Shown here: positions 13,586 to 48,533 of the stretch, piece by piece | Layout: each line of letters starts with the position of its first letter | Position numbering within the stretch: position 1 is the stretch's first letter | Origin: a virus | Lineage: Duplodnaviria > Caudoviricetes | Reading direction: 5' to 3' (one strand) | DNA: 64,000 bases | IMG/VR virus record: IMGVR_UViG_3300010270_000379 | Span: 11,649 to 75,648 of that record | The notes under the pieces: model-generated | The model's input: only the letters and a program-made list of their open reading frames with translations | What the model was told of the DNA's origin: nothing | Database searches by the model: none | Program-made: the position numbers and the translations under genes

Positions 13586-13605
13586 TTTCAAAAACTCCAA
13601 AAGAC

Positions 13606-13719
13606 AAAAAAAATAGGGCAGCCACAACGAATAACGTTATGACTGCCCTTTTCAGAACAAATCTTAATCTAAATATGGAATATATTATTATTATAAATCT
13701 ATAATTTTACATTTGTCAA
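13606..13719 (-). promoter_or_regulatory. Late leader L2 (head operon)
   Basis: TTGACA(13719-13714)-18-TATAAT; TTGTTCTGAAAAGGGCAGTC...GGCTGCCC followed by T-run. Confidence 0.85.
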
Positions 13720-14033: not shown

Positions 14034-15233
14034 TTATACTTCTTCACCCTTCTTAGCTATCTTTTCAGCCGTGTACTTATTTTTACCGGTATTTGGATCC
14101 TTTTCAAAAGGAATAAAGTTATCATAGAAGGACCAATCATCGGCAAAATCTTTTACTTTATCAAAATTAGCTTCATTGCCTGTCATATTAAGTAATACAT
14201 CTGGCGGCACAAATCTACCGGTAAAATCTTCTACATTCTTTTCGGTAGGGCTTTCAATATAACGTTTAATAGCACGTTTCAAACTTTCCTGTTTTGGAAC
14301 ATGCATATAATAAGCGCCTGTTTTATATCCGGCATCTTTAGCTAGTTTTAATTCTTCAATCTGTTTATCAGCATTTGACATTGTAATATCCATTACAATA
14401 TTAAGGCCCTGGGCCATAGCTGCCTTCATAAGCATTTTAGACAAATCTGAGCTTTCTTCATGGTAGGCCTTTGCTTTCCATCCTTCCCATTTTTCGCCGG
14501 ATTCATTTGCTAATTCTTCTTTCAATGCATCTGGATCCACTACAATAACGTTATCCTCATTGTATACACCGGCATCAGATTTCTTTTTATTGAAAGTAGA
14601 CTTTCCAGAACCACCACGGCCCCCTAAAATCTGGAAAGTAGGCAATTCACCGTCTTTTGGTGTAGCTGCTGCAACTTTCTCAGGTGATAACAATTTTTTG
14701 ATAATTGTTTCATGCAATTTCTGTCTTTCTGGAGTATAAATAGCGTTTACACCTTCACCAGATTTACGGAATTTTGTAACTGTTTCAGGCTCTTTATTTG
14801 CACGTTCTAAGTCATATCTGAATTTCATTTCAAATTCAGGATGCTTTTTTACAATAGGCAATTCAAGAATAGCCTTAATTGCGTTTTTCATTCCTTCTGG
14901 TGTAGCTGCATTAATTGATTCATCGTCATAAGTTCTTTTATAATCAGCGGCTTTAAATTTACTTGCTGCAACCTGTTTACGGCCGTATGTTGGAGCAAGC
15001 TGTTTAGTAGGTGTAGTTACCTCTTTTTTGCCTGTTCCAACACTTTCAGGCCCCTTCTTTTCTGAGTTTCCTTTAGGTGTATAAACTTCTCTCCATTTTC
15101 CAGGAGCAACCTTTTTATATTTTTTACCTCTCCACTCTCTTATTGTACCAATTCCATAACCTCTTGATTTCTGAAAATCAATGTCATCAAGAAAAGTATT
15201 ATAAACTGATTTCTTTACAAATAACTTTTTCAT
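14034..15233 (-). CDS. Tagged cargo A: zeta-toxin-like P-loop kinase
   Basis: GGRGGSGKST, VVDPD, YHEESS, IVMDIT, GRFVP, WSFYDN; N-terminal GYGIGTIREW tag; start MKKLF. Confidence 0.8.
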   Translation of the reverse strand: MKKLFVKKSVYNTFLDDIDFQKSRGYGIGTIREWRGKKYKKVAPGKWREVYTPKGNSEKKGPESVGTGKKEVTTPTKQLAPTYGRKQVAASKFKAADYKRTYDDESINAATPEGMKNAIKAILELPIVKKHPEFEMKFRYDLERANKEPETVTKFRKSGEGVNAIYTPERQKLHETIIKKLLSPEKVAAATPKDGELPTFQILGGRGGSGKSTFNKKKSDAGVYNEDNVIVVDPDALKEELANESGEKWEGWKAKAYHEESSDLSKMLMKAAMAQGLNIVMDITMSNADKQIEELKLAKDAGYKTGAYYMHVPKQESLKRAIKRYIESPTEKNVEDFTGRFVPPDVLLNMTGNEANFDKVKDFADDWSFYDNFIPFEKDPNTGKNKYTAEKIAKKGEEV

Positions 15234-15246
15234 TTTACACCTCCCA

Positions 15247-18060
15247 TTAAAGACAATTACAGCGATTAAAGGCTTCACTTACCATCATTTCAGTAGAATT
15301 GAACAATTCAGGCTGCTCTGCAGAATAATCATTGAACAATGATTCATTTTCTTCTTCCGGCTCTTCTTCTTCATCTTCTTCAACAAACATATCTACAATG
15401 AAGTCATCAAAAAGAGATTTCTTTACAGTAATTCCACGTTTCTCTAGTTCTTCCTCAAATCTCTCAATTACTTCTGGATGTTCTTTAGCTGTTGTTTGAT
15501 ACAAAATAGCATCTCTTAAACCTAATTTAAGTTTATTATCAACCTTTGTATCTTCTGTAATGTATTCTTTTTTATCCATTACTTTATCAAGGTTGAATTT
15601 CAATCTGTCATAATTGAGTTTCAATGTTTCATCACTCATATCCGCCATTCTTTCAGTAAGATTTGCTGCTGCAGAATCGGAAAGTCTCTTGAAACGATCA
15701 CCATAATGCTCTTTTATTGAGGCTACAAATTCCTCGTTTGTCTTTTTATATGCTTCTTTAAGAGCTGATTTTTTTTCATTAGCATCTTTTTTCGCCTGTC
15801 TACCCTTGCCATAATCCATTTTTTTATCTGAGCCGGACATAGGCATAAGGATAGATGAACTAGAGCCGGTGTTAATCTCAATTGCCTTATCAGCTCTTTC
15901 ACCTATCTGTAAAATGGATGTTTTACCAGATAAAGCATTTACCAGGTAATCAGCATTGATATTCATATAGTTAGTATCTTCTTTTGCCGGGCCCCAATCT
16001 TCGCTATATTTCATTTTTATATCTTTTGCTTCACCTACCGGAGTATCATCAATGAATACTTTACCATCACGGAATTCAAGCTGAACAAGATTTGTACCTT
16101 TTTTATCAATAGCACCATCTTTCTGCATTTCTTTAATCTTATCTTTTACAAGTTTTGTATCTAAAGTTGCTGTCTGTTTAAGATCTTCTGGAATAACCTT
16201 AGAATAATTAGGGAATCTTGCATCTACATCAATTTTTTTGATATTAATTCCTGATTTATCAGTATTAATATCAACATAAGAACCATTTGGTATACCTTCA
16301 AGTTCTCCAACTTCAATAAATTTCATTCTACGAGCATCAGTAGTTATAAGTTTTCCATTTTCATAATAGACATGCTTCATAAACTCTCTACTATCCCACT
16401 TTGGAGCTACACAATTTTTAAGAGATTCAATCTCATTTGCAAGATCTTTAGAATATGGCAATTGTACTTCATTTTCACCTACACTCTTATTACTTGCAAT
16501 CGGCTGTAATTCATCAAAAGAAACAACCTTACCAGAATTATCTACACTGTAGATTTTTTCAGTTTTTTCCTCTTTAGGAGTTTCCTTAGTTTCTTCTATA
16601 GTTTTTTCGGCTTCGGATTCTTCAAGAAGTTTTTTACATTCAGTATAAAAGGCAGCACTTAAATGATTAGAACAAAGTTCTACCTGATGATCTATATCAC
16701 TTAGCAATTCAATATCAGTTTCATCTTTACTTGTAAACAATGCGTTATCTTTTACATGCTTTTCAAGTTTATTAATCAGCTTATTTTTATATTTAGAAAT
16801 AACTTCATTAACGGTTGTACCTTCATCAGCATATTCTGAATAGCGTTTAAGCCTTTCATCAACAAGTTTTTTGTTTTCTTCAAGTTTTCCTTCTTTTATT
16901 ATCTCCGGTAATTTTTCCTTAATTTTATCAAGTTTTTCCTTTAATTCTGCTTCTAATTTAGGCTTTGCTGTTTTTTCAAACTCTGTATTGATTTTATCAA
17001 TACCTTCTTTACATCTAATTGCATTTGCAATTTCAGATCTTACAGCCCATTCTTTACCTTCTTTATCAACCTTAAATATAGCATCACCTACTTTTAATTC
17101 ACCCTTACGAGCTACTTCGTTAATTTTATCAGCCATTTCAAGATATTTTACACCCTCACCTTCATCATTTTTATCTACTCCACCAAAAGGCACTTCTTTA
17201 GTTTCAGTTTTCTTTTCATCTTCTGATTCTTCTTCATATCCAAATTCATTATTAATAGCATCCTTCATACGGCCTGAAAGTTTTTCAAGTTCTTCACGGT
17301 ATTTTTTTTCACCTTCTGAAATGTTTTTTTCTGAATAAATGAGACGTAACTTACCTAAAGCCTCTAACTCTGGATCATTAAGTTCATTAGGATTCATCCC
17401 CTTTGCCTTTGCTTCTGGTCTTAATTTTTTAGCAACTTTATCATAGGCTTCTACAATATTATCAAGAGTTTCAGCATCATTTTTCCCCTTTAATGATTGC
17501 TCATACTCTTTTTCATAATCTTCCTGTGTTTTTATTTTCTTTTCAGCCGGCTTAGAAGTTGTTTTACTTCCCATATCACCGTTATTCTTAGCATCTACAG
17601 CGGCACGGAGTTTATCAAGAACCGGCAAGTCAATTCCATTTTCATCAACAAAGCGCTGTTTATTCTGCATTACAAAGGCCATAAGGTCCTCAACGTTATC
17701 AATCTTCTGTACTCTTGCAATCAATTTACCAATTGCAATATTTGTACCACGGCCTTCTTTATCAAAAACTCTGGCCCATTTACCCGGAGCAATTTTCTTA
17801 TACTTCTTTCCCTTCCAAATTCTGACTGTTCCTACACCGTAGCCGGCTTTCTGGATCCATTTTCCACTAATAAGAGACTTTTCAAGATGTGTATAATGTC
17901 CTTCCTGAGAATTGAAATAATCAATTGCTTTTTTTACATCTTTTTCATCCTGTTTTTTCAAGATTTCAATAATCTCTTTTTTAAGTTCTGCTAACTTTCT
18001 ATCGTTTACAGCCTTACAAACATTCTTGAATTCACTAGCCTTTACCATGAATCTTGCCAT
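15247..18060 (-). CDS. Tagged cargo B: polyvalent protein with beta-clamp-like domain
   Basis: Shared N-terminal module; TTDARRM, FPNYSKVIP, INADYL and ILMPM align with DnaN at 56585..57703. Confidence 0.7.
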   Translation of the reverse strand: MARFMVKASEFKNVCKAVNDRKLAELKKEIIEILKKQDEKDVKKAIDYFNSQEGHYTHLEKSLISGKWIQKAGYGVGTVRIWKGKKYKKIAPGKWARVFDKEGRGTNIAIGKLIARVQKIDNVEDLMAFVMQNKQRFVDENGIDLPVLDKLRAAVDAKNNGDMGSKTTSKPAEKKIKTQEDYEKEYEQSLKGKNDAETLDNIVEAYDKVAKKLRPEAKAKGMNPNELNDPELEALGKLRLIYSEKNISEGEKKYREELEKLSGRMKDAINNEFGYEEESEDEKKTETKEVPFGGVDKNDEGEGVKYLEMADKINEVARKGELKVGDAIFKVDKEGKEWAVRSEIANAIRCKEGIDKINTEFEKTAKPKLEAELKEKLDKIKEKLPEIIKEGKLEENKKLVDERLKRYSEYADEGTTVNEVISKYKNKLINKLEKHVKDNALFTSKDETDIELLSDIDHQVELCSNHLSAAFYTECKKLLEESEAEKTIEETKETPKEEKTEKIYSVDNSGKVVSFDELQPIASNKSVGENEVQLPYSKDLANEIESLKNCVAPKWDSREFMKHVYYENGKLITTDARRMKFIEVGELEGIPNGSYVDINTDKSGINIKKIDVDARFPNYSKVIPEDLKQTATLDTKLVKDKIKEMQKDGAIDKKGTNLVQLEFRDGKVFIDDTPVGEAKDIKMKYSEDWGPAKEDTNYMNINADYLVNALSGKTSILQIGERADKAIEINTGSSSSILMPMSGSDKKMDYGKGRQAKKDANEKKSALKEAYKKTNEEFVASIKEHYGDRFKRLSDSAAANLTERMADMSDETLKLNYDRLKFNLDKVMDKKEYITEDTKVDNKLKLGLRDAILYQTTAKEHPEVIERFEEELEKRGITVKKSLFDDFIVDMFVEEDEEEEPEEENESLFNDYSAEQPELFNSTEMMVSEAFNRCNCL

Positions 18061-18087
18061 TTTCCAAATCCTCCCAGGAAATAAGTT

Positions 18088-18192
18088 AAAAAAAAATAAG
18101 GCAGCCGACTACTAAAAATAAGTAATCGACTGCCCTTTACAGACATATCTATGTATTTACTTTATTATGTTACATAATTATTAAATAATCAA
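18088..18192 (-). promoter_or_regulatory. Late leader L3 (cargo B/A operon)
   Basis: TTGATT-17-CATAAT; ATGTCTGTAAAGGGCAGTCG...CGGCTGCC followed by T-run. Confidence 0.75.
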
Positions 18193-18289
18193 TATTTTTA
18201 TTTTTTACGCTAAATATAACGTTTTTACTTGACTAATTTAATTATTCATACGATAATTTAATTAGTTCGGGATTTCTTAATCCCATCAG

Positions 18290-19084
18290 TTAAAGGGAAG
18301 TTCGTTTATGAGCTTCCCTTATTTCTTTTAAATCATAATTATGAAATTTTTGTTCTGTTTCTACCCACACAGATAATATTCCATTTTTTCCATCTTTTGT
18401 CATACTCTCTACAGCCTGGTCTAAAGGTAAATGAGTTTTATTTTTGTTCAATCTTACCTGTGTAGGTTTATTTTCAATCACATGTATAAATACACCCTCA
18501 CAATTATATTTTTTCATACCTTTTTGATAATTATTCATAATTGAATTATCTTCTTTTTTATCTGTTTGATTTTTTGACTTTTTAAAATCTACAGGAACAC
18601 CATTTACTATTGCATCAACTTTTTTACTTCCTATAGAAGGTTCCTCAATTAAATAAACCTTAAAACCTAAACTCGACAAAATAACAGCCTGTAACCTTTC
18701 TTTAAATTCATTATTGCCATGTACTCTGTTAGGATGTTCAAATATATAACCTTTATAAATATGTCCGGTTTCTGGTTCTGTTATTTTATAATATTTCTTT
18801 TTACATCCCTTATATCTATTACTAATCCAATCTTTTACTGATTGTGATAAATTAGTTCTATATTTTGTTAATAGGTTTTCAAGTTCTATACCTCCGGCAG
18901 CTCTTTTTCGTTTATCTTCTTCTAAAAGTTTTACCCATCTATAGCCTTCATGTGTACCATGTTTATCTTTTATTTGAACTAACTTCTTTACTAAATTTGC
19001 CTTAACTCTTTTATTATGATTTGATTTTTCAATATATTTTTCAGACAATTCATTATAAACATCAGATTGAACAAGTAATATCAT
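18290..19084 (-). CDS. Protein with CdiA-CT/restriction-fold nuclease-like C-terminal domain
   Basis: YLIEEP...KKVDAIVNGVPVDFKK...GVFIHV; start corrected to MILL. Confidence 0.5.
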   Translation of the reverse strand: MILLVQSDVYNELSEKYIEKSNHNKRVKANLVKKLVQIKDKHGTHEGYRWVKLLEEDKRKRAAGGIELENLLTKYRTNLSQSVKDWISNRYKGCKKKYYKITEPETGHIYKGYIFEHPNRVHGNNEFKERLQAVILSSLGFKVYLIEEPSIGSKKVDAIVNGVPVDFKKSKNQTDKKEDNSIMNNYQKGMKKYNCEGVFIHVIENKPTQVRLNKNKTHLPLDQAVESMTKDGKNGILSVWVETEQKFHNYDLKEIREAHKRTSL

Positions 19085-19095
19085 TTCATTTCTCC

Positions 19096-19132
19096 AAAAA
19101 CAGGTAACGCATCCTATAAAGGACACGTTACC
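19096..19132 (-). terminator. Terminator-like hairpin in front of the nuclease-like gene
   Basis: GGTAACGTGTCC/GGATGCGTTACC followed by TGTTTTT. Confidence 0.6.
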
Positions 19133-19163
19133 AGAAATCTTTTCTACTCTTGCAGATAGATTA

Positions 19164-22100
19164 CTATTTACGAATTAAGAAGCGGCCATCTTTAATAAGA
19201 TATTTTGGAAGTGATTTCTCTATTTTACCGGCACCGTCAATGTCAATTTTAATATCCTTACCGGTTTCTGCCATAATCTGATTTACAGCATAGCGGCCGT
19301 TTCTATTCAATTGTCGCTGCCATGCACCCTGAGAAGGAGACCATCTAAAGCCGTTATGTTTAAGTTTATCAATAACGTCTCTTTCTGGCTTTCCATCGTA
19401 GATAATCTGAATTCTATCAAGCTCTGGATTTTCATAGATATAACCACCATCAAAATCTACACGGCCGGTATTTGTGTTTGAACCTGATCCGCCTTCATTA
19501 TTGCTTTCAGATGCTTTTCTTTCATCAATAACGGCCTGTCTTTTCTGTAGTTCTTCAAGTCTCTGTTTATTTCTACGAATATCGGCTGTCTGATTTGAGC
19601 CAAACGGATGTTCTATCCCCTGTTTAATAACTTCATCAGAATATCCTTTTTCTTTTGCAGCATTTACAGTCTGAGTTAAAACTTCACGTCTTTTAGCTCT
19701 ATCTTCATCAGATCTATCAGCCCATTGCCAATTGGTAATACCGTTCTTTTTACACATTTTGTTGTAAAGAAGTGTAACGTCATGTGAATCTTCCATGAAC
19801 TTGATTTTTCCCTGGATTTTCTCAATAGCGTATGGATCTGTATTGTCAATCTTATCGCCATAACTCCATTTTCCCCTAGAGTAATCTTCAAAAACTTTCT
19901 TCTTTACATCTTCAACGCTATCATTACCGCCGGTATATTTCAGCTCTTTCAAACGTTTTTCAGTGTTCTTAATAAACTTTTCTTTCTTTTCTTCAAAAGT
20001 TTCGTAGGCACGTCTTTCTGCTTCCATCTTCTGATTAAAACGTTTTGTATTATATCTAGCCGGGCCGGCTACTGCCCATGAAGGGCCGGCAGCAAGTCTT
20101 TTACTTGCCATTTCATTATAGCTACTTCCAACTAATCCGGCATAAGCATTAATACGCTCCTGGAAATATGCTTTTTGCTGCTCATTCATCTTTGAAACAT
20201 TGAACTTATCACGGAAATTTGACATTTCAACATTTACATCATGCTGATAAACTGAGCCGGCATTACCTGACATTGAAATATCACTAACTCTACGGGCTGT
20301 TTCTGAATCAATTCTAGGAATAGGTGTAACTATACCATCCCTAGCGTCTTTTTCATCCATTTCAGCCCTTGCAACGTTATCTCTTGCAGCATTAAGTTTC
20401 TTATCAAGTTCAAATCCGTTGCCCTGGCCTATCTGACTTTCAAGATCTTTTAATTCTTTTTTTGCATCTTCAACGGCATCAGAATCGCTCATTTTTCCGT
20501 TATAAGCGGCATCGTGTAAAGTCAAAAGCTCTCTACGATCATCACCGGTGTAATTCTTTGTTGAATCTGTAAGTCTGGTAACTTCGGCCATAAGCTCTTT
20601 TATTTTTGAGCTACCGTTAAGCCATTTCTGATAATCAGAATCAGGCCCCATATCCTTTTCACTCAATCCACCACCAAAACCGTTATTCTTTTCATAAAGA
20701 GCAACGTTTTCTTTTTTCTGTTTAGTGATTTCTTTACCAAGTTTCTTATATTCTGCTACAGCTTCATCCTTAGTAAAATTAGAATAATCGACTACAGGCT
20801 CATTTTCTTCCGGCTCAACAAGTCTAAATCCGGCCGCATTATCATTGCCTAACATAGCATTAGAGCGATTTTCATGCTTCTCTGCTTCTGTTTCTTCCGG
20901 CTCTGTATCAGGCTCATTCTTTACTTCTTCAAGTTTCTGTTTAAGCTGCTCACGATAGTCTTTTTTACTCTGTATTGTTTCTTCATCATCAAGATTGTTG
21001 ATTTCAATACCGAGTTTAATAATTCTATCTTCCAAAGTCTGTATTTTTTCTTCTTTAGAAAGTCCACCAAGATATACAGGAGGTTCTTTTTCAAGGGCCT
21101 CAGCAAATTTATCAAGCAATTCACCAAATTTTTTAGCTTCTTCTTTTTCAGCCTTCTTTTTCTTTTCTTCCATTTCTTTCTGGTATTGTCTGGTTTTTGC
21201 TTCCTTCCAGATTTCTTTATTTTTTTCCTGTATATCTCGTCTTTCCCTATAGGCTTTCAGTTCTTCTTCTGTAGGCTCTGTAAGCTGTTTTTCAAGGTCC
21301 TTAATCTGGTTTTCAATTTCTGTCTGCTGCTCTTTTGTCAAACTAGCCCATTTTGTAGCACGGCCACGATAAAGTTCACGTTTCAAAGCCATAAGTTTAA
21401 GATGGTCGTAATATGGATGATCCGGGAATACACTACAACTATCTTTCTCAAAATAATCTGTCATCATATCAGTATTATTTTCAGGATAGAAAATAGAAGG
21501 AATACTAGCACCGTAACTATCAGCATACAAGCGAATATATTCACTTCCATCATCAGCTTCACGAATTGTAGCGTCAATCTTTTCAAGTTTACCGGATTTA
21601 TCTTTAATACCATCTTTTGTAAATCTGTATCGAGGAATATTTGAAGTATCTGAGCTTTCATTATAGGCATTACTTACACCCATAACAGTATTAAAGAACT
21701 TCTCAGCAATTGTTGAACCTGTTGCACCGTCAAGCTGCTCTTTAAGATCGTTTACTTTCTTCCAAACTTCTGTAAATGTTTCATCGTCATTAGGCATATA
21801 TCTAGGTCGATAATTCTCTTTTTCGGCCATTTCTTTCAAGTCTACAACGATATAACCAGGTCGCTTAAACTTATCTTCATAGTTGATTCTTACAGATGGA
21901 TTGTCGATTGTTTCAGTATCACCCAAAGAGAATGAATAGCCATCACCAAAGGCCAAAGCATCTGAGTAATAACCACCGAATTTCTTATAAAGCCAATCAC
22001 TAGAAATAGTCTGGCCCTTTACCTTACGTTTAATCCATTCATTGATTGTATCATGGTATACAGAAGGAATTTTGAATGAGCCTTTATTTTCTTCTTTAAG

Positions 22101-23105
22101 TCTATTTCTAAATTCAGCAATCTTCTTTTCAACTTCATCTTTTTCTTTTCTGGCAGCACGTCTTTTTATATCTTCTTCCTGTGTTGTATGTCTATTGCTC
22201 CATCCGCCATTCTGCTTAAATTCCTTTTCAAGAACATTATAACGGTCTATCAGGGCCTTAAATTCAGCCTTGTCTTTTTCAATCTTAGCTACTTCTTCGA
22301 CAGTTTTTTCCTGTTCTTTCTTGAAGTCTTTTTTAGCGTTCTGGTTGCCTTTCATAGCTTCACTTAAAGATGTAGTATCTTTAATTTCAGTCTGAACGGC
22401 CTCGTTAGTTCCGTTAATATCCTGTTTTTTAGCATTTTCTGTAGCTGTTTCAGTAACTTTTTCTTCTGCAGTAGGTGTAACTTTCTGTACATCTTTTGCT
22501 GCAAATCGGCCCATAGAACCATCATCAAAATTAATAAATACCATACCATTATTAAAGTCTTTTACAACTTTTCCGGTCTGGCCTTTATAAGTTACTTTAT
22601 CACCTACGGCAATTTTACCCTGTACAGGTTTTAATATCTCTTTTACTTTTTCTGTAAATGTTTTTTTGCCACCGTTCAATGCTGTCTTAGCTGTTCTTAC
22701 GGCTTCTTGTAATTCTGAAACAATATCAAGTGTTTTTCCGTTTGTATCCTGGAATCTGTTTACATTTTCCATAACAATCTGCAGTAATTCATCTGTAGAT
22801 TTTGCGTTCATTACGGCCTTTTTAAGATATGCTATAGACTGTTTTGCACCACGGCTATTAGATTCATAAATCAATCTCCATTTGCCCGGAGCAATCTTTT
22901 TATATTTACGGCCTCGCCATTCTCTTACAGTTCCAATACCATAACCACGGCTTTTCTCAATCTCACTAAATGTGGATGGATTCATAACATTGTAGATGTA
23001 TTCAAGCTGATTAAGAGATTTATTAATCTCTGCCGGAGCATCATCTGTCTGCTTATTCAAAATCGCAATAATCTTCTTCTTAAAGTAATTCAAGTCTTTA
23101 GCCAT
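19164..23105 (-). CDS. Tagged cargo C: 1313-aa polyvalent protein (SH3/KOW-like repeat, DUF3560-like C-terminus)
   Basis: Shared N-terminal module; VGDKVTYKGQTGKV; DRIQIIYDGKP...LKHNGFRWSPSQGAWQRQL; start MAKDL. Confidence 0.65.
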   Translation of the reverse strand: MAKDLNYFKKKIIAILNKQTDDAPAEINKSLNQLEYIYNVMNPSTFSEIEKSRGYGIGTVREWRGRKYKKIAPGKWRLIYESNSRGAKQSIAYLKKAVMNAKSTDELLQIVMENVNRFQDTNGKTLDIVSELQEAVRTAKTALNGGKKTFTEKVKEILKPVQGKIAVGDKVTYKGQTGKVVKDFNNGMVFINFDDGSMGRFAAKDVQKVTPTAEEKVTETATENAKKQDINGTNEAVQTEIKDTTSLSEAMKGNQNAKKDFKKEQEKTVEEVAKIEKDKAEFKALIDRYNVLEKEFKQNGGWSNRHTTQEEDIKRRAARKEKDEVEKKIAEFRNRLKEENKGSFKIPSVYHDTINEWIKRKVKGQTISSDWLYKKFGGYYSDALAFGDGYSFSLGDTETIDNPSVRINYEDKFKRPGYIVVDLKEMAEKENYRPRYMPNDDETFTEVWKKVNDLKEQLDGATGSTIAEKFFNTVMGVSNAYNESSDTSNIPRYRFTKDGIKDKSGKLEKIDATIREADDGSEYIRLYADSYGASIPSIFYPENNTDMMTDYFEKDSCSVFPDHPYYDHLKLMALKRELYRGRATKWASLTKEQQTEIENQIKDLEKQLTEPTEEELKAYRERRDIQEKNKEIWKEAKTRQYQKEMEEKKKKAEKEEAKKFGELLDKFAEALEKEPPVYLGGLSKEEKIQTLEDRIIKLGIEINNLDDEETIQSKKDYREQLKQKLEEVKNEPDTEPEETEAEKHENRSNAMLGNDNAAGFRLVEPEENEPVVDYSNFTKDEAVAEYKKLGKEITKQKKENVALYEKNNGFGGGLSEKDMGPDSDYQKWLNGSSKIKELMAEVTRLTDSTKNYTGDDRRELLTLHDAAYNGKMSDSDAVEDAKKELKDLESQIGQGNGFELDKKLNAARDNVARAEMDEKDARDGIVTPIPRIDSETARRVSDISMSGNAGSVYQHDVNVEMSNFRDKFNVSKMNEQQKAYFQERINAYAGLVGSSYNEMASKRLAAGPSWAVAGPARYNTKRFNQKMEAERRAYETFEEKKEKFIKNTEKRLKELKYTGGNDSVEDVKKKVFEDYSRGKWSYGDKIDNTDPYAIEKIQGKIKFMEDSHDVTLLYNKMCKKNGITNWQWADRSDEDRAKRREVLTQTVNAAKEKGYSDEVIKQGIEHPFGSNQTADIRRNKQRLEELQKRQAVIDERKASESNNEGGSGSNTNTGRVDFDGGYIYENPELDRIQIIYDGKPERDVIDKLKHNGFRWSPSQGAWQRQLNRNGRYAVNQIMAETGKDIKIDIDGAGKIEKSLPKYLIKDGRFLIRK

Positions 23106-23136
23106 CTTAATTTTCCTCCCAGGAACGAAAAAAAAT

Positions 23137-23254
23137 AAAAAAAGGCAGCTACCAAAAAACAGATCCAAAAATCTGTTAATTGATAACTGCCCTTTTCAGA
23201 ACATATTATTTGTAATGTTTAAGTTATTTTATAACAGTATTACCCAAAAATCAA
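23137..23254 (-). promoter_or_regulatory. Late leader L4 (cargo C operon)
   Basis: TTGATT-17-TAAAAT; ATGTTCTGAAAAGGGCAGTT...AGCTGCC followed by T-run. Confidence 0.8.
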
Positions 23255-23257
23255 TTA

Positions 23258-23464
23258 CTAATTGCCTGATAATAAATCGTCTATTTTTTCTGTAAATGAT
23301 TTTTTCACCGGTTTTTCAATTATAGATTCCTCACCGTGTAATTGTTTCATATACTGATTAAATTCCTCTACAATTCCGGCCGGAGCGCCTTCTTTAAGAT
23401 GCCAATTATCTTCTTCCATAACAAAATATGGAGAATCTAAAAATAGTGGTCTACTTCCTATCAT
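23258..23464 (-). CDS. Small protein coupled to cargo D; candidate immunity/partner
   Basis: ATGA overlap with cargo D stop; WHLKEGAP...EEFNQY. Confidence 0.6.
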   Translation of the reverse strand: MIGSRPLFLDSPYFVMEEDNWHLKEGAPAGIVEEFNQYMKQLHGEESIIEKPVKKSFTEKIDDLLSGN

Positions 23465-25551
23465 ACCATACCTCTCATATATTTCTTATATTTTAATGTT
23501 TCCTTAAAAACTTCAACTGCAAAAGCAGAAGGATTTTCACTTCCTAAAGCCTGTTGTAAACACTCAGCACCAAATTCGTCTGCATCTGTTGTAGCATATT
23601 CCGATATACCAAATTTTATAATATCATCCTGTTTAGGTCCACCTTTTTTACCTCGCATTTTCAATCGTTTAGTTACATTTTGTTTTATTCTTTTTGCAAG
23701 CCTTCCATGTGTCATAACATGATAATATTCATGGTATGTAATATCTTTTGCCGATGTTCCTTTAGGATGGAAAGATCCTTCTGTTCCCTCATAAGTATCT
23801 TGAAAATTTGAATAATCACTATAATTTTTTGAATTATAGGTAATCTCTCCACCCCTGGCAAAAGCCCACCAATTTTTATAACATGGTTCACACTTCATTG
23901 AAATATTTCTACCTTTTTGTTCTGGAAATATAGCAAATAACCGTTCCATGCACTTAAACACATCTTTAGCAGCATTTACATCCATTCTTTTTAAGTCTAA
24001 TCGTTTGTTTCCTTCATCAGAATACCAATCTTTAGACTTAATCAGGTTTTCAACATCTTCCGAAATTTTACACTCATTTATTTTTTCATCCTTGCCATAT
24101 TTATAACCTCGTAAATAATAATAAGCTATCGGCCCCATAAAAACATCAAGTTTCTTTTCAAAACTATCTCTTTCTTCTGCAAGTTCATTAGCTTGTTTTC
24201 TGTAGCTTAAAACTTCATCCCATATTTCATGTCTACTTTCATCGTGGTTTAGTAATAATTCATGGTATTTATTTCTTGCTTCATTTTCTTTTTTAATTAC
24301 ATCTTTTAATTTTTCCTTTAGTGTATCTCTTTCAGCCATAAGAGAATTTACACCTTCCAGGGCTTTAGTTACTTCTTCATCGGAATAAGTTTTTAGTCCA
24401 TTATCCTCATTAATCTTATTTATCTTTTCTTCCCTGGCAACCTTAGCAGCTCTATTTTTCTCTTTTATTTCTTCATTTACTTTATGCTTTACACGATTTT
24501 CAACATCTTTTAATAATTCATCAAAATTAGAAATACCATTAATAACACACCATCTTTGAGCAGCTTTCTTATCTGTTATATTTTTCATAAGAGTAATTAA
24601 ATTTGTATAAACAGCCCATGTAGAATTTTTGTGTTCATTTACAAATTCATTAATCTTATTATTAAAATCAACAATAGCACTGTTTTCTGAATCTGGAATA
24701 TCAGCCCTGTTAACATTTTTTTCGTTTTCAATTCCTACAAAAAAGTCTTTTTTAATATAATTCTTTTCAACTTCATTAAAGCGCCACTGTATTCTTGATA
24801 ATAAAGGATGCAATTCACCTTTTAATCTTTCATAAGCTGCTGATTTATTCCAATCCCCTTCATTTTCTGCTTCACGTAACTTTTTTGTAATATTACCGTA
24901 AAGTTCTGTTGCCTGATCGTGAATAGCTTTCATAGTTTTATAATCGCTATTATCATAATCAACATGAACGGTTTTATTATAAGCTGCATCTATTTCCTTT
25001 ATTTCATCTGAAATTCTTTCATCTTCACTCTTTCCATTTTCCTTCTTAAACTGTTCTATCTGTTCCTGGGTAGATGGTTTTCCTGTATTCAAGCGGCCTC
25101 TACTTTCTTTTACAGCGTTTTGAAGTTCTTCCACAATCGGCAGCAACTTACCATCAGCATCCATGAACCTGTTAGTATTTTCCATTACAAGTTGTAATAA
25201 TTCGTCTATGCTCTGAGCATTTGCAATTTTCTTTTTGATGATATTAATAGACTGTCTGGCCCCTCTTGTATTTGAATCGTAAATCCTTCGCCACTTTCCA
25301 GGAGCTATTTTTCGAAATTTCTGGCCCTTCCAAACTCTAACCGTACCTATTCCATAGCCGGCCTTTTCAATTCCTATTTCAGAATATGTCTTTTTAATTG
25401 AATTGTCATAATCCTCTATGGCTTTACTTACAATTTCTTCATCATTCTTTTCCAGGACCTTAATTAATTCCTTCTTAAAATAATTTAATTGCGCTGCATC
25501 CTTCTTTTTATTCAAGCTCTTAATTAATTCAGCACTTACTACAACCTTCAT
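23461..25551 (-). CDS. Tagged cargo D: polyvalent protein with zincin metallopeptidase domain
   Basis: Shared N-terminal module; HEYYH and SEYATTDADEFGAE. Confidence 0.7.
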   Translation of the reverse strand: MKVVVSAELIKSLNKKKDAAQLNYFKKELIKVLEKNDEEIVSKAIEDYDNSIKKTYSEIGIEKAGYGIGTVRVWKGQKFRKIAPGKWRRIYDSNTRGARQSINIIKKKIANAQSIDELLQLVMENTNRFMDADGKLLPIVEELQNAVKESRGRLNTGKPSTQEQIEQFKKENGKSEDERISDEIKEIDAAYNKTVHVDYDNSDYKTMKAIHDQATELYGNITKKLREAENEGDWNKSAAYERLKGELHPLLSRIQWRFNEVEKNYIKKDFFVGIENEKNVNRADIPDSENSAIVDFNNKINEFVNEHKNSTWAVYTNLITLMKNITDKKAAQRWCVINGISNFDELLKDVENRVKHKVNEEIKEKNRAAKVAREEKINKINEDNGLKTYSDEEVTKALEGVNSLMAERDTLKEKLKDVIKKENEARNKYHELLLNHDESRHEIWDEVLSYRKQANELAEERDSFEKKLDVFMGPIAYYYLRGYKYGKDEKINECKISEDVENLIKSKDWYSDEGNKRLDLKRMDVNAAKDVFKCMERLFAIFPEQKGRNISMKCEPCYKNWWAFARGGEITYNSKNYSDYSNFQDTYEGTEGSFHPKGTSAKDITYHEYYHVMTHGRLAKRIKQNVTKRLKMRGKKGGPKQDDIIKFGISEYATTDADEFGAECLQQALGSENPSAFAVEVFKETLKYKKYMRGMV

Positions 25552-25561
25552 TTATGGCCTC

Positions 25562-25728
25562 CCACGTAAAATATGACTTTTTTGCTATTTACGGATTTAC
25601 CGTATTTAACACTTGTTTTCTTGTCTAAAACTGTCTAAAATCTTGTCTATTTACGTCTAATATGTAATTAATAATGTCTAAAAATGTCTAACTATCCACG
25701 TAAAATATTACTTTTAGACTTTTTAGAC
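25562..25728. repeat. GTCTA/TAGAC array flanked by 20-bp direct repeats
   Basis: CCACGTAAAATATKACTTTT at 25562 and 25696; six GTCTA and two TAGAC copies. Confidence 0.75.
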
Positions 25729-28131
25729 TTCTGGATAATATCTAATCCAGGAACCTCTACACCACGGATGAACTATACCGACCGGACAATCACCCTCATT
25801 TTTACCATCCCATATAGCATATTTAGCATAAGGATCTTTAATTCTCTCATTAGGCAATGGAACATCACTCCATAAAACGATAGTTCCATTAAGTTTTTTA
25901 CACTGTTTACAAGTGTTATCATCCATCATTTCAAAACGCTTAAAATAAACTTTAGAATTCGGCTCTGAGTTATATACTTCTTCCTGGATATATGCACTAT
26001 TAGCGGCCATCTGGACCTCGCTATCAGCAATTCTCTGCATATCTCTATTAAGACTTGCACACTTATCAAAAAGATTCTGAGCTACAACGGATTTACTTTG
26101 TTTATCTCTAATACCATCAATAATTATTTGCTGTATGTTATTTCGTATGTCATCACTTACTCTAGTAACTCTCTGGGCCGCTGAATCTACTGCTATTTGA
26201 ATTCGGGCCTGTCTCTCTCTGGAAATAACATCCCCGAATTTATCTTTCATGTTTTTAATAGAATCACCAATCCAATCAACGTCATATCTTTTGGCTTTAA
26301 TATCAGATAATGACATTTTTCTTACGGCTTCCAGGCTATTTGTTTTTGAAAGTCTATCAAGAATAATTCCTAAACTTTCTGCAGACAATACAATTTTCTC
26401 ACCTATTCCGGCATAATTACGGTTAAGATATTTTTCAAGCTCTACAACAAACATTTTCCATTCTGATTCTTTAATAGGAAGTCCTGTAGATGGATTATAC
26501 AAAATCTTGCCTTTATGCTTTAATTCACCGGCCTTACTTACAATTCTAATATCCGGCAAGTCAAAATATGCAATAACAAAATTATAAATAGCTCTGGTCC
26601 TATTTGTGAACTCTTTGAAATACTTATCTACAAGTTCTTCCTGAGCTTTATATACAAAAGTCTCACCTTTACTAGCACCGGAAATATCAGCATCAAGAGA
26701 CAACGCAATTTTATGTACGGCCTTTTCAATTTTGCTTCTGTCAAAATCTGTTATTCTTACAAGTAAATTACCATAACTTGTAGATGCATCTGCCGGAATA
26801 TGTTTAATCATAAACGGCTGATTATTTGCAATAGCATTTAAGGCCTTATTTACCTGTTCAAGTTTCTGCTGTTTATTATTTTCTGTAATATCAGTAATGT
26901 TTATATCAAAAGATTTATGAACCATTTTCCCCTTATGACTGAAAATAAAGCTCTTAAACTGCTCCATTGTCATTGTTGTCATGCTGCCATAAAAACCTGG
27001 CCTATCGTATTGTTTCATATAGGCTTTTTTTGCATCCTCAGCACTTGCAAAACATAACATACATTTATCTTCATCGTATTTATGTGTTACCGGATCATTC
27101 TGGTGGATTACATAAACCTTTTCAGCCTTTTTATCTGGACCTACATAGCAATCTAAGTGATCTTTGTCTACTCCTACAGTTCCACGGATATAACCATAAT
27201 CATAATTCATATATGTCCGCCATTTATGACCGTCTTTATCTACTCCTGAACGATATGAGCCTTTTTTATTTTCGATAGAAATATCCATACCATAAAGTTT
27301 AGTTCTACCCTGTAATTTATGGCCGGAATAAGTTAGAGATTTATTCAAATCTTTATAGGCTTTATATGCAATTACATTCTCTGCATCCTGATGCAATTGT
27401 TCTTCTGCAACATACCTTGTTAGTTTATCATCGTATTTTTGAATAATAGAATCATAATCTAAACCTTTTTTATTACAAAGATGATGTAATTCTACTTTCC
27501 AATCAGTAAAAAGAGATTTATTTATAGTTTCAGGATTAATAATATAAGCAACTTTTTTATTTAATACACGTTTATCTTCTTTTTCACAATTTTTTACAAC
27601 TGATGCAGATAATTTATCATTGTTACCTATTTCAAACTTTACAAGTTTTTCATCTTGCCAATCTCCACCACAAGCAATTATGAAATATGTATCAGAAAGT
27701 TCCATAAGTTCACAATTCTCTAAATCTTGTCCTTTTGGATAACCTTCAATCTCATAAACTTTTTTAGGAATTAAATGAAAATAATCTCTTTCATCATCCA
27801 TCAGTTTTAACATTTCGTTTTGCAATTCTGGTGATAATCTTCTAGTCCACAAATTAAACAGTTTATCAGTAATAGTTAGAGATTTCTCATATCTTTTTCT
27901 ATCAATTTCTCTATCTAATAAAATTATTTTTCGTAAATCTTCATCAACTCTATCTAATAAATCCACATTTTTATTTGACTGTAATTTGCTTGTTATTTGC
28001 TTATTTTGAGAATTTAAGGCTGATTTTTGTAGTTTTTCTGCAAATTCCGGCTTAATATCCTCGATTTTTGGAGATTTTAATTTGACTGTCATTTGCTCAA
28101 CTACATCTTTTTTTACCCTTACATTAGCCAT
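25723..28131 (-). CDS. MuF/gp7-like head morphogenesis protein with inorganic-pyrophosphatase-like domain
   Basis: ISIEN.KGS.RSG.D..G..W...M..DYGYI...G.D.D..D...DEDK.ML (InPase-like); C-terminal CKQCKKLNG...HPWCRG. Confidence 0.75.
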   Translation of the reverse strand: MANVRVKKDVVEQMTVKLKSPKIEDIKPEFAEKLQKSALNSQNKQITSKLQSNKNVDLLDRVDEDLRKIILLDREIDRKRYEKSLTITDKLFNLWTRRLSPELQNEMLKLMDDERDYFHLIPKKVYEIEGYPKGQDLENCELMELSDTYFIIACGGDWQDEKLVKFEIGNNDKLSASVVKNCEKEDKRVLNKKVAYIINPETINKSLFTDWKVELHHLCNKKGLDYDSIIQKYDDKLTRYVAEEQLHQDAENVIAYKAYKDLNKSLTYSGHKLQGRTKLYGMDISIENKKGSYRSGVDKDGHKWRTYMNYDYGYIRGTVGVDKDHLDCYVGPDKKAEKVYVIHQNDPVTHKYDEDKCMLCFASAEDAKKAYMKQYDRPGFYGSMTTMTMEQFKSFIFSHKGKMVHKSFDINITDITENNKQQKLEQVNKALNAIANNQPFMIKHIPADASTSYGNLLVRITDFDRSKIEKAVHKIALSLDADISGASKGETFVYKAQEELVDKYFKEFTNRTRAIYNFVIAYFDLPDIRIVSKAGELKHKGKILYNPSTGLPIKESEWKMFVVELEKYLNRNYAGIGEKIVLSAESLGIILDRLSKTNSLEAVRKMSLSDIKAKRYDVDWIGDSIKNMKDKFGDVISRERQARIQIAVDSAAQRVTRVSDDIRNNIQQIIIDGIRDKQSKSVVAQNLFDKCASLNRDMQRIADSEVQMAANSAYIQEEVYNSEPNSKVYFKRFEMMDDNTCKQCKKLNGTIVLWSDVPLPNERIKDPYAKYAIWDGKNEGDCPVGIVHPWCRGSWIRYYPEV

Positions 28132-28535
28132 TATTCACCATCCTTAGATAAATACATATCAATGTACCCTTCATCTTTTCCCCAGGTAGTAACTCGCATC
28201 CAGGAATAACAATCATCATTAATCTTAAAGCGGCATAAATAATATGTTTCGGTCCTGGCCTTCTTCTTTTTATTCCACTGTCCTACCACCTCAGAATAAA
28301 GGAAATAATCTTTTACATTCTCAGCGGCCTTAAAATGTTCTTCCGGTGTAAATCCTCTTACCACTGAATTATTAATTGATTTGATACATCCGATTTTATT
28401 CATAGATTGACGGTTGAATATAAATCGAATTCCGTTTTCCCTTTTTTCAAACAACTTTTTACGTTCATGTCCTACAGCATTACGAAAATTGTTTCTCAAT
28501 CCATCCAGACTTTTCAAATCAATTGTGTTTACCAT
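28131..28535 (-). CDS. LPD3/BECR-like domain protein
   Basis: FNRQSMNKI...S...EHFKAAENVKDYF; start corrected to MVNT. Confidence 0.45.
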   Translation of the reverse strand: MVNTIDLKSLDGLRNNFRNAVGHERKKLFEKRENGIRFIFNRQSMNKIGCIKSINNSVVRGFTPEEHFKAAENVKDYFLYSEVVGQWNKKKKARTETYYLCRFKINDDCYSWMRVTTWGKDEGYIDMYLSKDGE

Positions 28536-28563
28536 ACTTCCCCCTAACTTTTTATGGTTAAAC

Positions 28564-28660
28564 AAAAAAGCAGCCGGCAACAATCCTTAAAAGATATTGC
28601 CGACTGCTCATTACAAACAAATCGTATTTATATTATAAATCACTTTTTGTATAAAATCTA
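28564..28660 (-). promoter_or_regulatory. Late leader L5 (LPD3/MuF/cargo D operon)
   Basis: TAGATT-17-TATAAT; TTGTTTGTAATGAGCAGTCGG...CCGGCTGC followed by T-run. Confidence 0.75.
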
Positions 28661-28668
28661 TTATTAAT

Positions 28669-30384
28669 TTACCAATTTGAACCTGGTTTCTCATATCCAA
28701 ACATCGCATTTACTTGCCGCAAGCTCTTACCCTTTTTAATAACATTAGTCTCACCGTAATTGTTTACGGCATTTTGATTTTTAAGCTCTACCTGGACTAC
28801 TTCTCTTTCTGCATCCGTTTTATTTACGTTTTCGGCAATCTTTTGGACTTCTGGATTATTTACAGTTTTCAAAAGTTCCTGTTTTTTCTTTCTTCTCTGA
28901 GCATAGAAATTATCATTTTTAGCATCTGTTGATACTACGGCTGAATTTGCCAAAGCCCAAGCCCAAAAACTATCCGCATGGCCTTTATCATCTCTACTTG
29001 CATCATAACTAAAATGTTTTCCACCACCTCTATCAATTCTTTTTATACTATGAATCTGCATGTGAAATTCTTTATCATTACTCAGTAAGAATTCTTTCTG
29101 TTCAAGGCCACGTTTTACATCAATTGCTAAAATCTCTTTTGATTCCTGAGTAAACTGAACACCTTCTACACGATCACCTACAACTGCATGTACATCCTCA
29201 TAAATATTATCACCTATTCCGGTTCTATCAATTTTGCCACGGAATACAGGTAATTCTTTATAGGCTTTTATTATCATTTCTTTCTGTTTTTTATAAGTTT
29301 CATTTTTTAATTCAATTCTGGCAAAATCTCTTTTCTTGCCCTCTGCTGTTCTTCCCATTAAAAACAAAACACTTAAATCTTTATGGCGGCCAACATCATA
29401 ACCAAGGAATAAAGTCTTTCCGTGATATTCTGGCCGGTAATTAAGAATAGCTGTATCTAAATCTTTATAAGCCTGAAAATCTATTCCACGGTTATATTCC
29501 CAATATTCTTCATCACTCATTTTTTCGCATAAAGACAAATCAATATCAGATTCCCTCTTTCCAGGTGTGTTTTCATAAATCAAATCAAGTGAAATATAGC
29601 TTTCTGATGAATCAATAAACATACATTCAAACTCTTGTTGAAATGTATCCATATCACTGTTTTGAAAAATCATTTTTAAGATTTTTGTTCCAAAAGTCTC
29701 TACACGTTCTTCTGTAGATAACTCTGGAGCAACTTTTACAGCCGTAGGAACATCTACACAAAGATCACGGCAAAACCACCAAGGAATATTGTATCTTTCA
29801 TAATCGTATGTCTCTTTGTCAGTTAAAATATCATAGAATTGGCCGATTTTACCTAGAGGCGAACTTCCCATTTCAATAGTTCCACCACGAGAAATTACAG
29901 GCAAAGCAGCATCATAGACTAATTTTTGCATCTTAGGATTATAAATAGCAAATTCATCAAGAGAAATATCACCACCTTTACCACGAGGCGGCCTACAAGG
30001 AATAGATATAAGTCTTGATTGAGTAATACCGTTTTTATCCTGGAAACATAACATAGATTTATTATCAGTTATGAGCTTTTTCTTTGCATCACAATCTGGA
30101 ATAGATTCATAGAACTGTTTAGCGTAGGATATTTTCTCTAGTGCATCTTCTTCATTGTAAGAGACAAACTGTTTTGTATATCCTATCCTGGCCGGATCCA
30201 TAGCCTTTATCAGGCCCTTCAAGCTGCAGATAAACGACCAACCTACACGTCTTGACTTTACAATAGCGATAAATCTGGCCATAGATTTTATATATTCATC
30301 TTGCCAAAAGTCTAAGAGTAAGTCTTTCTGTTGAAATTGTATGTAAGTATAGGCATAAAGCAGCCGTTCATCTTTTGAAAACAT
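28669..30384 (-). CDS. terL: Terminase large subunit
   Basis: KSRRVGWS Walker A, LDEFA Walker B, GYDVGR RNase H-like nuclease, HADSFWA. Confidence 0.92.
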   Translation of the reverse strand: MFSKDERLLYAYTYIQFQQKDLLLDFWQDEYIKSMARFIAIVKSRRVGWSFICSLKGLIKAMDPARIGYTKQFVSYNEEDALEKISYAKQFYESIPDCDAKKKLITDNKSMLCFQDKNGITQSRLISIPCRPPRGKGGDISLDEFAIYNPKMQKLVYDAALPVISRGGTIEMGSSPLGKIGQFYDILTDKETYDYERYNIPWWFCRDLCVDVPTAVKVAPELSTEERVETFGTKILKMIFQNSDMDTFQQEFECMFIDSSESYISLDLIYENTPGKRESDIDLSLCEKMSDEEYWEYNRGIDFQAYKDLDTAILNYRPEYHGKTLFLGYDVGRHKDLSVLFLMGRTAEGKKRDFARIELKNETYKKQKEMIIKAYKELPVFRGKIDRTGIGDNIYEDVHAVVGDRVEGVQFTQESKEILAIDVKRGLEQKEFLLSNDKEFHMQIHSIKRIDRGGGKHFSYDASRDDKGHADSFWAWALANSAVVSTDAKNDNFYAQRRKKKQELLKTVNNPEVQKIAENVNKTDAEREVVQVELKNQNAVNNYGETNVIKKGKSLRQVNAMFGYEKPGSNW

Positions 30385-48496: not shown

Positions 48497-48533
48497 TTTT
48501 AAGGTTCCTCCCAAAAATTAGAAAATTTAAAAT

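Follow-up and report, generated by a model that had tools for sequence, protein, structure and literature searches.

What unites four proteins in the head-gene block of a spirochaete prophage that carry the same short peptide near their N-terminus and then continue into entirely different domains? The proteins, here called A, B, C, and D, are encoded on a stretch of 64,000 nucleotides (the window, bases 11649-75648 of the 75,648-bp, ~94% complete IMG/VR provirus record IMGVR_UViG_3300010270_000379). The element is a temperate myovirus infecting Treponema-like gut spirochaetes, with an integrase at the window's end. A preliminary description of this DNA had read the peptide as a tag that loads exchangeable enzymes into the phage head. 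We find that A–D are effectors of the polyvalent type, a class of proteins predicted to be packaged in virions and injected (Iyer, Burroughs, Anand, de Souza, and Aravind 2017, PMC5512222). They are laid out as separate cassettes within the head block, each headed by a carrier module that is followed by a charged linker and a variable payload. The reading that we favor with moderate confidence, based on sequence comparison, is that the module would load the effectors into the prohead, that its arm would be cut off by the prohead protease, and that the payloads would be ejected with the DNA into the next host.

The shared motif, GYG[IV]GT[IV]RxWxGxK[YF]xK[IV]APGKW, occurs exactly four times in the window in a six-frame fuzzy search, once in each of the four open reading frames (ORFs) for which it had been claimed, and a profile search of the whole provirus record yielded no fifth copy. 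The four copies are:

15093-15179, minus strand: motif copy of A
17776-17862, minus strand: motif copy of B
22878-22964, minus strand: motif copy of C
25291-25377, minus strand: motif copy of D

B, C, and D have ~150 aligned residues in common (34-55% identity to D), which include the helix ahead of the motif and the helical domain behind it, both of which had been ascribed to them; A consists of a short leader and the motif only, without the rest of the module. Within the 23-residue core, 16-20 residues are identical between copies, 6-11 of which are encoded by different codons, and the nucleotide identity over the whole module is 51-57%. Because of this divergence in codons and nucleotides, the modules are old paralogs under selection at the level of the peptide, as the preliminary description had held. 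Downstream of the module the four proteins are indeed unrelated, without detectable mutual similarity (best BLASTP E 0.25). The notion that the similarity lacks functional meaning, being due to chance or to a tandem duplication of recent date, for which only the adjacency of the genes speaks, is refuted by the different codons at about half of the identical residues, the low nucleotide identity, and the existence of 467 clusters of relatives (see below); we give it next to no chance of being right.

While the motif of 26-27 residues that had been described as the tag is real, the true unit is a folded module of ~150 residues. In an AlphaFold2 model of the D module, built from a 48-sequence alignment, a long N-terminal helix (residues 7-57) is predicted to be followed by a disordered stretch (56-64) with an invariant lysine, a three-stranded beta-meander (71-90) that corresponds to the motif, and a helical bundle (96-155). 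Modeled alone, the meander and bundle form a compact and confidently predicted structure (predicted local distance difference test 87.5, predicted template-modeling score 0.72). The prediction thus divides the module into a helical N-arm, a basic beta-meander of three strands, and a bundle of three helices. Across 30 residues, the meander carries a charge of +6.6 (SD 0.8), with invariant R, K, and W; the invariant residues include R72, W74, K78, K81, and W87.

Searches for named relatives of this module gave little. No model for the tag was present in Pfam (E ≤ 10), PHROGs, or NCBIfam, the ESM Atlas gave no usable match, and Foldseek returned nothing from the Protein Data Bank (PDB) at E ≤ 0.001, for the whole-module and core models alike. 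A wide VIA-align search reached best Z scores of 6.7 (whole module) and 8.7 (core), aligning generic helical segments only and no convincing relative, and BFVD held a single homolog, the unnamed A0A8S5RV08. This lack of fold matches does not make the fold new, and the module may be an LPD domain from Iyer et al. for which Pfam has no model (e.g., LPD4). In the full texts searched, the motif strings appear in no relevant paper, and no paper links Treponema prophages to polyvalent proteins.

The four genes that carry the module or its motif are:

14034..15233, minus strand: gene A, 399 amino acids from the ATG at 15233; minimal tag plus Zeta-toxin/AAA_33 kinase
15247..18060, minus strand: gene B, 937 amino acids; full module (17560-18060), long charged linker, C-tail
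19164..23105, minus strand: gene C, 1313 amino acids from the ATG at 23105; full module (22659-23105)
23461..25551, minus strand: gene D, 696 amino acids; full module (25072-25551), coiled-coil middle

Each of the four has at most one recognizable payload, and none has a MuF domain, which resides on a separate protein of 802 amino acids. The clearest payload is that of A, where a leader (MKKLFVKKSVY...) is followed by FQKS, the motif, and, at residues ~206-376 of the 414-residue ORF, a kinase domain. The Zeta-like kinase previously proposed here matches the Zeta toxin family PF06414 with 86.5 bits (cutoff 22.3; E 2.2e-24) and has an intact P-loop, GGRGGSGKST; no recognized antitoxin of the epsilon/PezA type adjoins the gene. 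For D, a zincin peptidase is a candidate assignment: its C-terminal domain displays a zincin-like signature, with HEYYH at residues 607-611 (about 23719-23733) and EFGAE at 659-663, and HExxH and EFxAE are invariant across 10 members of the D family. On the other side, D had no Pfam match, MPTase-PolyVal included, a D-family profile against PDB sequences gave coiled-coil noise, and phmmer of the C-terminus against the PDB found nothing. The beta-clamp-like payload claimed for B is a weak similarity below the cutoff: residues 595-741, which resemble domain III of DnaN, match TIGR00663 at E 1.6e-5 with 24.1 bits (cutoff 137.65) over model positions 222-365 only, and the phage's own DnaN at BLASTP E 0.02 over 25 residues; three homologs match DNA_pol3_beta_3 (PF02768) at about 7e-5. 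The DUF3560-like payload of C was not supported: the isolated C-terminal 261 residues had no match to DUF3560 in Pfam even at E ≤ 1; the C-terminal ~200 residues match phrog_19458 and phrog_6744 only. The TTG start of C listed at 23168 is probably too far upstream.

The module heads a large family. When we built a profile of it, as had been proposed, and searched 1.84 billion representative proteins, 467 clusters (at 50% identity) were obtained at E ≤ 0.001 and 132 at E ≤ 1e-30; the family comprises at least these 467 clusters. A second search retrieved 688 longer proteins at E ≤ 1e-5, all annotated as hypothetical or by their payload domain. The sources were Treponema, Spirochaetia, and Bacilli metagenome-assembled genomes as well as uncultured phages. 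A Pfam tally over 122 homologs revealed a polyvalent repertoire of payloads: ddrB-ParB (11), LPD3 (8), PBECR2 (5), PBECR3, InPase, and LPD1 (3 each), and further Zeta, ART-PolyVal, SNF2/Helicase_C, Eco57I methylase, MuF_C, DUF3990, and DNA_pol3_beta_3. One architecture, [tag]-Eco57I methylase-SNF2, is DarB-like. Giant fusions place the module at cassette starts, as in [tag]-PBECR2-LPD1-[tag]-ddrB-ParB and DUF5661-Zeta-InPase-[tag]-ddrB-ParB, and one protein (P0143) combines Zeta, PBECR3, ddrB-ParB, and InPase.

The payloads behind the tag can evidently be swapped. Payloads were compared by Pfam tallies and a mutual-coverage test; single-linkage clustering was dropped, being confounded by the charged linkers and a shared C-terminal tail. 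This tail, of ~65 residues, defines the B-type members (44 of 154 family members) and always occurs along with the N-terminal module. Its consensus consists of vkKSLFDdf, an acidic run, NDYSAEQPELFNST, and NRC..C. In B it follows VKKS-LFDDF and spans residues ~884-937 (about 15247-15411, minus strand), and it was also seen in the related loci L001, L002, L010, L011, and L022. Among the B-type pairs whose tags are ≥70% identical, 207 of 412 have middles that are <30% alignable; accordingly, payloads have been exchanged between fixed ends. Together with the unrelated C-terminal parts and the polyvalent repertoire, this upholds the earlier proposal of swappable payloads behind one tag.

The position of the module within these proteins follows a clear rule. 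In the best 150 of the 467 representatives, the set used for this tally and for those of second copies and site enrichment, 148 start with the module, and 16 contain a second, internal copy at a cassette boundary. The tag is thus N-terminal as claimed, but it is also present inside proteins, where cassettes meet, and as a repeat that stands alone. The latter is found in a distant GC-rich lineage (locus L043, 3899-12361, plus strand), where the beta-meander alone is present in one to three copies per protein, each after a hydrophobic-x-K-[G/A] sequence. The payloads of L043 include a PolyA_pol-head nucleotidyltransferase, DUF5661, and LPD1.

These observations bear on an alternative reading, in which the module is a domain that works in the infected cell, for example by binding nucleic acid or escorting the DNA, while packaging proceeds via MuF, the linkers, or the C-tail. 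The constant charge of the meander and its invariant residues would suit such a domain, as would the internal and repeated motif inside single L043 proteins, the presence of untagged proteins in the cargo block, and the many payloads that act on nucleic acids (ddrB-ParB, PBECR, methylase, helicase). Yet a positional rule such as that of the 148 N-terminal modules would be unusual for a plain functional domain in shuffled polyvalent architectures, the Foldseek and VIA-align searches gave no fold or sequence match to a known DNA-binding domain, and protease-type sites (see below) cluster in and just before the module. The two readings are moreover not exclusive, since one basic surface could bind first the scaffold and then DNA. 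We consider it unlikely that work in the infected cell is what the module is for, and continue with the reading in which it loads its payloads into the prohead.

Loading into the head predicts a place among the head genes, and this is where the tagged genes lie. A–D and all other genes of the head block are on the minus strand, in the order HNH endonuclease, large terminase subunit (TerL), LPD3-like protein, MuF with InPase, D, p68, C, p278, B, A, protease-scaffold protein, and major capsid protein (MCP), with the tail sheath further downstream. This gene order bears out the placement of the block between terminase and prohead protease, beside a MuF-like protein. Around A–D, the block comprises:

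28669..30384, minus strand: TerL
28131..28583, minus strand: LPD3-like protein, 150 amino acids (weak match, E 0.0029)
25723..28131, minus strand: MuF-like minor head protein, 802 amino acids, with an InPase domain; polyvalent-type, without the tag
23258..23464, minus strand: p68, an ORF of 68 amino acids with one VKKSF site
18290..19126, minus strand: p278, an ORF of 278 amino acids without the tag, between C and B (likely start ATG 19084)
12074..13627, minus strand: prohead protease (residues ~17-230) with an acidic scaffold-like tail, 517 amino acids
10610..12058, minus strand: MCP

We then tabulated the neighborhoods of tagged genes in 44 loci, drawn from genomes and IMG/VR and containing one to four tagged genes each. 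In 43 of these 44 loci, a homolog of the portal, MuF, protease, MCP, or sheath protein was located ≤10 kb from the tagged genes, and two further look-ups agreed; the tags hence lie in head or virion blocks rather than mostly outside them. Usually, TerL, portal, and MuF are followed by ~5 kb of other genes and then by the tagged gene(s), protease, and MCP; MCP, p382, tagged gene, and sheath is an alternative order. p68 is kept after the D-type genes in three relatives (L006, L008, and L009).

A second line of evidence comes from a lysine motif. We counted a strict form, hydrophobic-x-K-[S/A]-hydrophobic, against the expectation from shuffled sequences. The protease-scaffold protein contains 11 such sites versus 0.6 expected (z 12.9) and the MuF protein 6 versus 1.0 (z 5.3), while B, C, and D have 3-4 each versus ~1 expected, and the tail and replication proteins of the window have essentially none. 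Among the best homologs the strict motif is 4.6-fold enriched (2.3-fold in the payload parts alone), versus 0.5-1.85-fold for control motifs, with 1.36-fold for the control hydrophobic-x-E-[SA]-hydrophobic. Across the related loci, its density per 1000 residues decreases from 15.7 in protease-scaffold proteins to 5.1 in MuF, 3.7 in tagged proteins, 3.4 in MCP, 3.1 in portal, 0.9 in sheath, and 0.3 in p382.

Both the genomic context and the motif speak to the possibility that the proteins are expressed late and remain unpackaged, acting in the producer cell (in host takeover or superinfection exclusion) or as inter-bacterial toxins released by lysis, with a module that serves in oligomerization or is secretion-related. 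Packaging is, after all, something that we infer, and the element, with its integrase, is a temperate prophage like those that carry MuF polymorphic toxins, whose delivery route is debated as well (PMC5576092). Against this, the tagged genes sit between portal/MuF and protease/MCP in nearly all relatives, the scaffold-type lysine motif is common to prohead-internal proteins and not to tail proteins, and the payloads match known or predicted virion-borne proteins such as the DarB-like methylase-helicase and DdrB-ParB. Packaged proteins therefore remain our preferred reading, and a purely unpackaged role seems to us a slim chance.

Within the module, the sites occupy defined places. A hydrophobic-x-K-[S/A/G] sequence is present in all 165 modules at K63, the lysine that directly precedes the meander, in 94% at K43, and in 79% within residues 1-20, whereas the folded bundle has one in only 15%. 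In the protease-scaffold protein, this motif exceeds expectation about 15-fold. Among the payload-bearing proteins of the window, C also has a KIEKS-L site 16 residues before its end. The N-terminus of the MCP, ELEK-ALEAGYGTNAADY, contains a putative maturation cleavage site of the same kind, and its hydrophobic-x-K-A-L-x-A-G-Y-G-T sequence is kept in all orthologs; the protease-scaffold protein holds an internal copy of this MCP motif (FCK-SLEAGSGADAADF). We also noted that K-SLEAGSGADAADFEGGRGLQKEDIE in the protease (13000-13060, minus strand, residues ~190-222) resembles K-ALEAGYGTNAADYTQGRSLQREDLE in the MCP (11960-12010, minus strand, residues ~17-50), each after a hydrophobic-x-K site. 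The resemblance between tag and capsid N-arm that the preliminary description had pointed out thus persists as a shared hydrophobic-x-K-[A/S] site; GYG, the other candidate link between the two, was rejected, as it varies among members of the tag family. Homologs of the protease domain include annotated prohead proteases of ~90-kb myoviruses, and for comparison, the MCP of HK97 is matured at K103/S104 (PMC10275583). By this analogy and the enrichment, the data suggest that hydrophobic-x-K-[S/A/G] is the recognition motif of the prohead protease and that the tagged proteins are among its substrates, which would place them inside the prohead.

The same sites could be read differently, with the module as a pro-domain or intramolecular inhibitor that silences toxic payloads in the producer until the prohead protease removes it. 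Conserved cleavage-type sites do flank the N-arm, no cognate antitoxin was identified in the block for the Zeta, PBECR, and ART payloads, and a pro-domain would account for the lack of obvious immunity genes. However, one module would then need to inhibit dozens of unrelated folds across a long charged linker, and the folded core, being free of cleavage sites, would stay attached after processing. We judge a silencing pro-domain to be improbable and retain the module as a loading device.

How might such loading work? We propose that the module docks its protein in the assembling prohead, most likely on the acidic core formed by the protease-scaffold protein. The prohead protease would then cut at hydrophobic-x-K|[S/A/G] sites and so remove the arm; the same protease would cut the acidic C-tail off B-type proteins and part fused cassettes. 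The mature payloads, with the basic meander in front, would stay with the DNA and enter the next host, while recombination between the conserved ends would exchange payloads. The net charges, -21 for the scaffold-like tail of the protease protein and -18 for the C-tail of B as compared to the basic meander, fit docking on an acidic core and a later hand-over to DNA, and a DNA-binding role in the host fits them equally well. A bolder form of this scheme, which we put forward only tentatively, is that the module serves as a lineage-wide adaptor for both encapsidation and ejection: the arm would target the scaffold and be destroyed, and the meander, now at the new N-terminus, would switch from scaffold to packaged DNA and leave with it.

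It is instructive to compare this arrangement with known systems. With the polyvalent proteins it shares the payload repertoire (ddrB-ParB, LPD1/3, PBECR2/3, InPase, Zeta, ART-PolyVal, SNF2 with adenine methylase, and MuF_C, with a zincin-like peptidase as a candidate member of the set), the location among late and virion genes, the predicted packaging and injection, and the joining of disparate domains in one polypeptide, as in the MuF-InPase protein of the window and the fused homologs. Different from those, the repertoire is here mostly split into separate genes, each headed by a ~150-residue module that matches no LPD in Pfam and is strictly N-terminal or at a cassette start. In phage T4, the capsid-targeting sequence (CTS) comprises about 10 residues and is cleaved at L/I-x-E sites. 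This conserved N-terminal element sits on hypervariable anti-host internal proteins, which are loaded on the scaffolding core and cleaved behind the element by the prohead protease (PMC3012670). A conserved N-terminal element on diverse payloads is common to both systems, but here it is a folded module of 150 residues that is unrelated to the CTS in sequence and has hydrophobic-x-K|[S/A/G] as its putative sites, and packaging is a prediction. In phage P1, the N-terminal 30 residues of DarB suffice to load a reporter, and the Dar proteins have no common N-terminal consensus (PMC9024508). DarB-type methylase-helicase and DdrB-ParB payloads are found behind the tag in L031, L025, and L034, with, unlike in P1, one strongly conserved module on all tagged cassettes.

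In MuF polymorphic toxins, MuF itself is the carrier (Jamet et al. 2017, PMC5576092). Both systems combine a conserved N-terminal domain with variable C-terminal payloads in the head modules of temperate phages; here, however, the carrier is not MuF, each phage has several tagged cassettes, and we recognized no immunity genes beside them. The giant phages offer a parallel for the processing step, although the motif of their prohead protease differs from the lysine motif described here. In SPN3US and phiKZ, the prohead protease removes propeptides from ejection (E) proteins at a motif shared with scaffold and capsid proteins (PMC10052503, PMC7411985). Propeptide-type processing by the prohead protease is what the sequences suggest for the tagged proteins too; in the giant phages it was proven by mass spectrometry, and no shared folded tag is present there.

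Several points weigh against loading by the module. The candidate cleavage motif derives from enrichment and analogy, and the protease, which Pfam did not place in a family, is assigned by a PHROG match and the homology to annotated prohead proteases. We found no virion proteome that contains the tag, and a tblastn search with the D module gave no match among 50,697 phage records (INPHARED), i.e., no cultured phage in that set carries it. A folded domain of 150 residues with an invariant basic surface exceeds what the known CTS peptides need, and it could have a function of its own in the host. With MCP, protease, and portal homologous throughout, the loci form a single broad phage lineage; they are not independent, Poisson p-values are inflated by this relatedness, and the conserved context may be inherited synteny. 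Finally, the cargo blocks also hold untagged genes, including MuF and the methylase and helicase of locus L045, and the tag is therefore not a universal requirement for loading. L045 is Treponema sp. R6D11 (GCA_054786075.1), apparently the genome of a cultured isolate with a related prophage head block, in which separate genes encode a MuF-like protein without the tag, an Eco57I methylase, and a helicase, and a double-tag LPD1 protein comes after them. The double-tag protein P0046 of this genome is encoded beside portal and MCP. The isolate is a possible experimental system.

Some further features of the provirus deserve mention. The portal gene lies apart from the head block:

46895..48514, minus strand: portal protein

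It is ~17 kb from TerL and MuF and surrounded by recombination and replication genes, while in 22 related loci, such as L006 (whose D-type tag is 98% identical), a portal homolog lies directly between TerL and MuF; the displacement seen here may stem from a rearrangement or from a faulty assembly. The protease gene and gene B are each closely preceded by a GC-rich hairpin that is followed by a T-run; the two hairpins (AGGGCAG...CTGCC[C/T]T) are near-identical and located at 13615-13649 and 18098-18136 (minus strand), respectively, and a perfect TTGACA-18-TATAAT promoter lies at 13719-13690. The hairpins and promoter may be what the preliminary description called late-type leaders, and they are possibly targets of antitermination. 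p278, which matched no family in Pfam, PHROG, or NCBIfam, is bracketed by terminator-like hairpins at 19132-19103 (minus strand) and 18293-18320 (plus strand).

That a conserved N-terminal address can sit on diverse injected proteins is established from T4, P1 DarB, and the MuF toxins. What is different here is the carrier: a large folded module, as yet without a name, that is very strongly conserved, differs from MuF, has no relation to the T4 CTS, and marks cassette boundaries in fused polyproteins. Injected effectors decide the first minutes of an infection, through anti-restriction, host shut-off, and toxin delivery, and capsid addressing of diverse cargo is known for very few phages (T4, P1, and some giant phages). 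The module flags hundreds of candidate injected effectors in uncultured phages of gut and rumen spirochaetes, and its family is a natural case of cassette exchange between fixed ends that also supplies a predicted protease motif. If the tag is sufficient for loading, it is a possible handle for cargo delivery; if not, it is still an uncharacterized domain that accompanies most polyvalent payloads of this lineage. Should the adaptor reading be true, the module would amount to a programmable protein-delivery tag for gut-spirochaete phages and to an undescribed family of carrier domains for phage polymorphic effectors.

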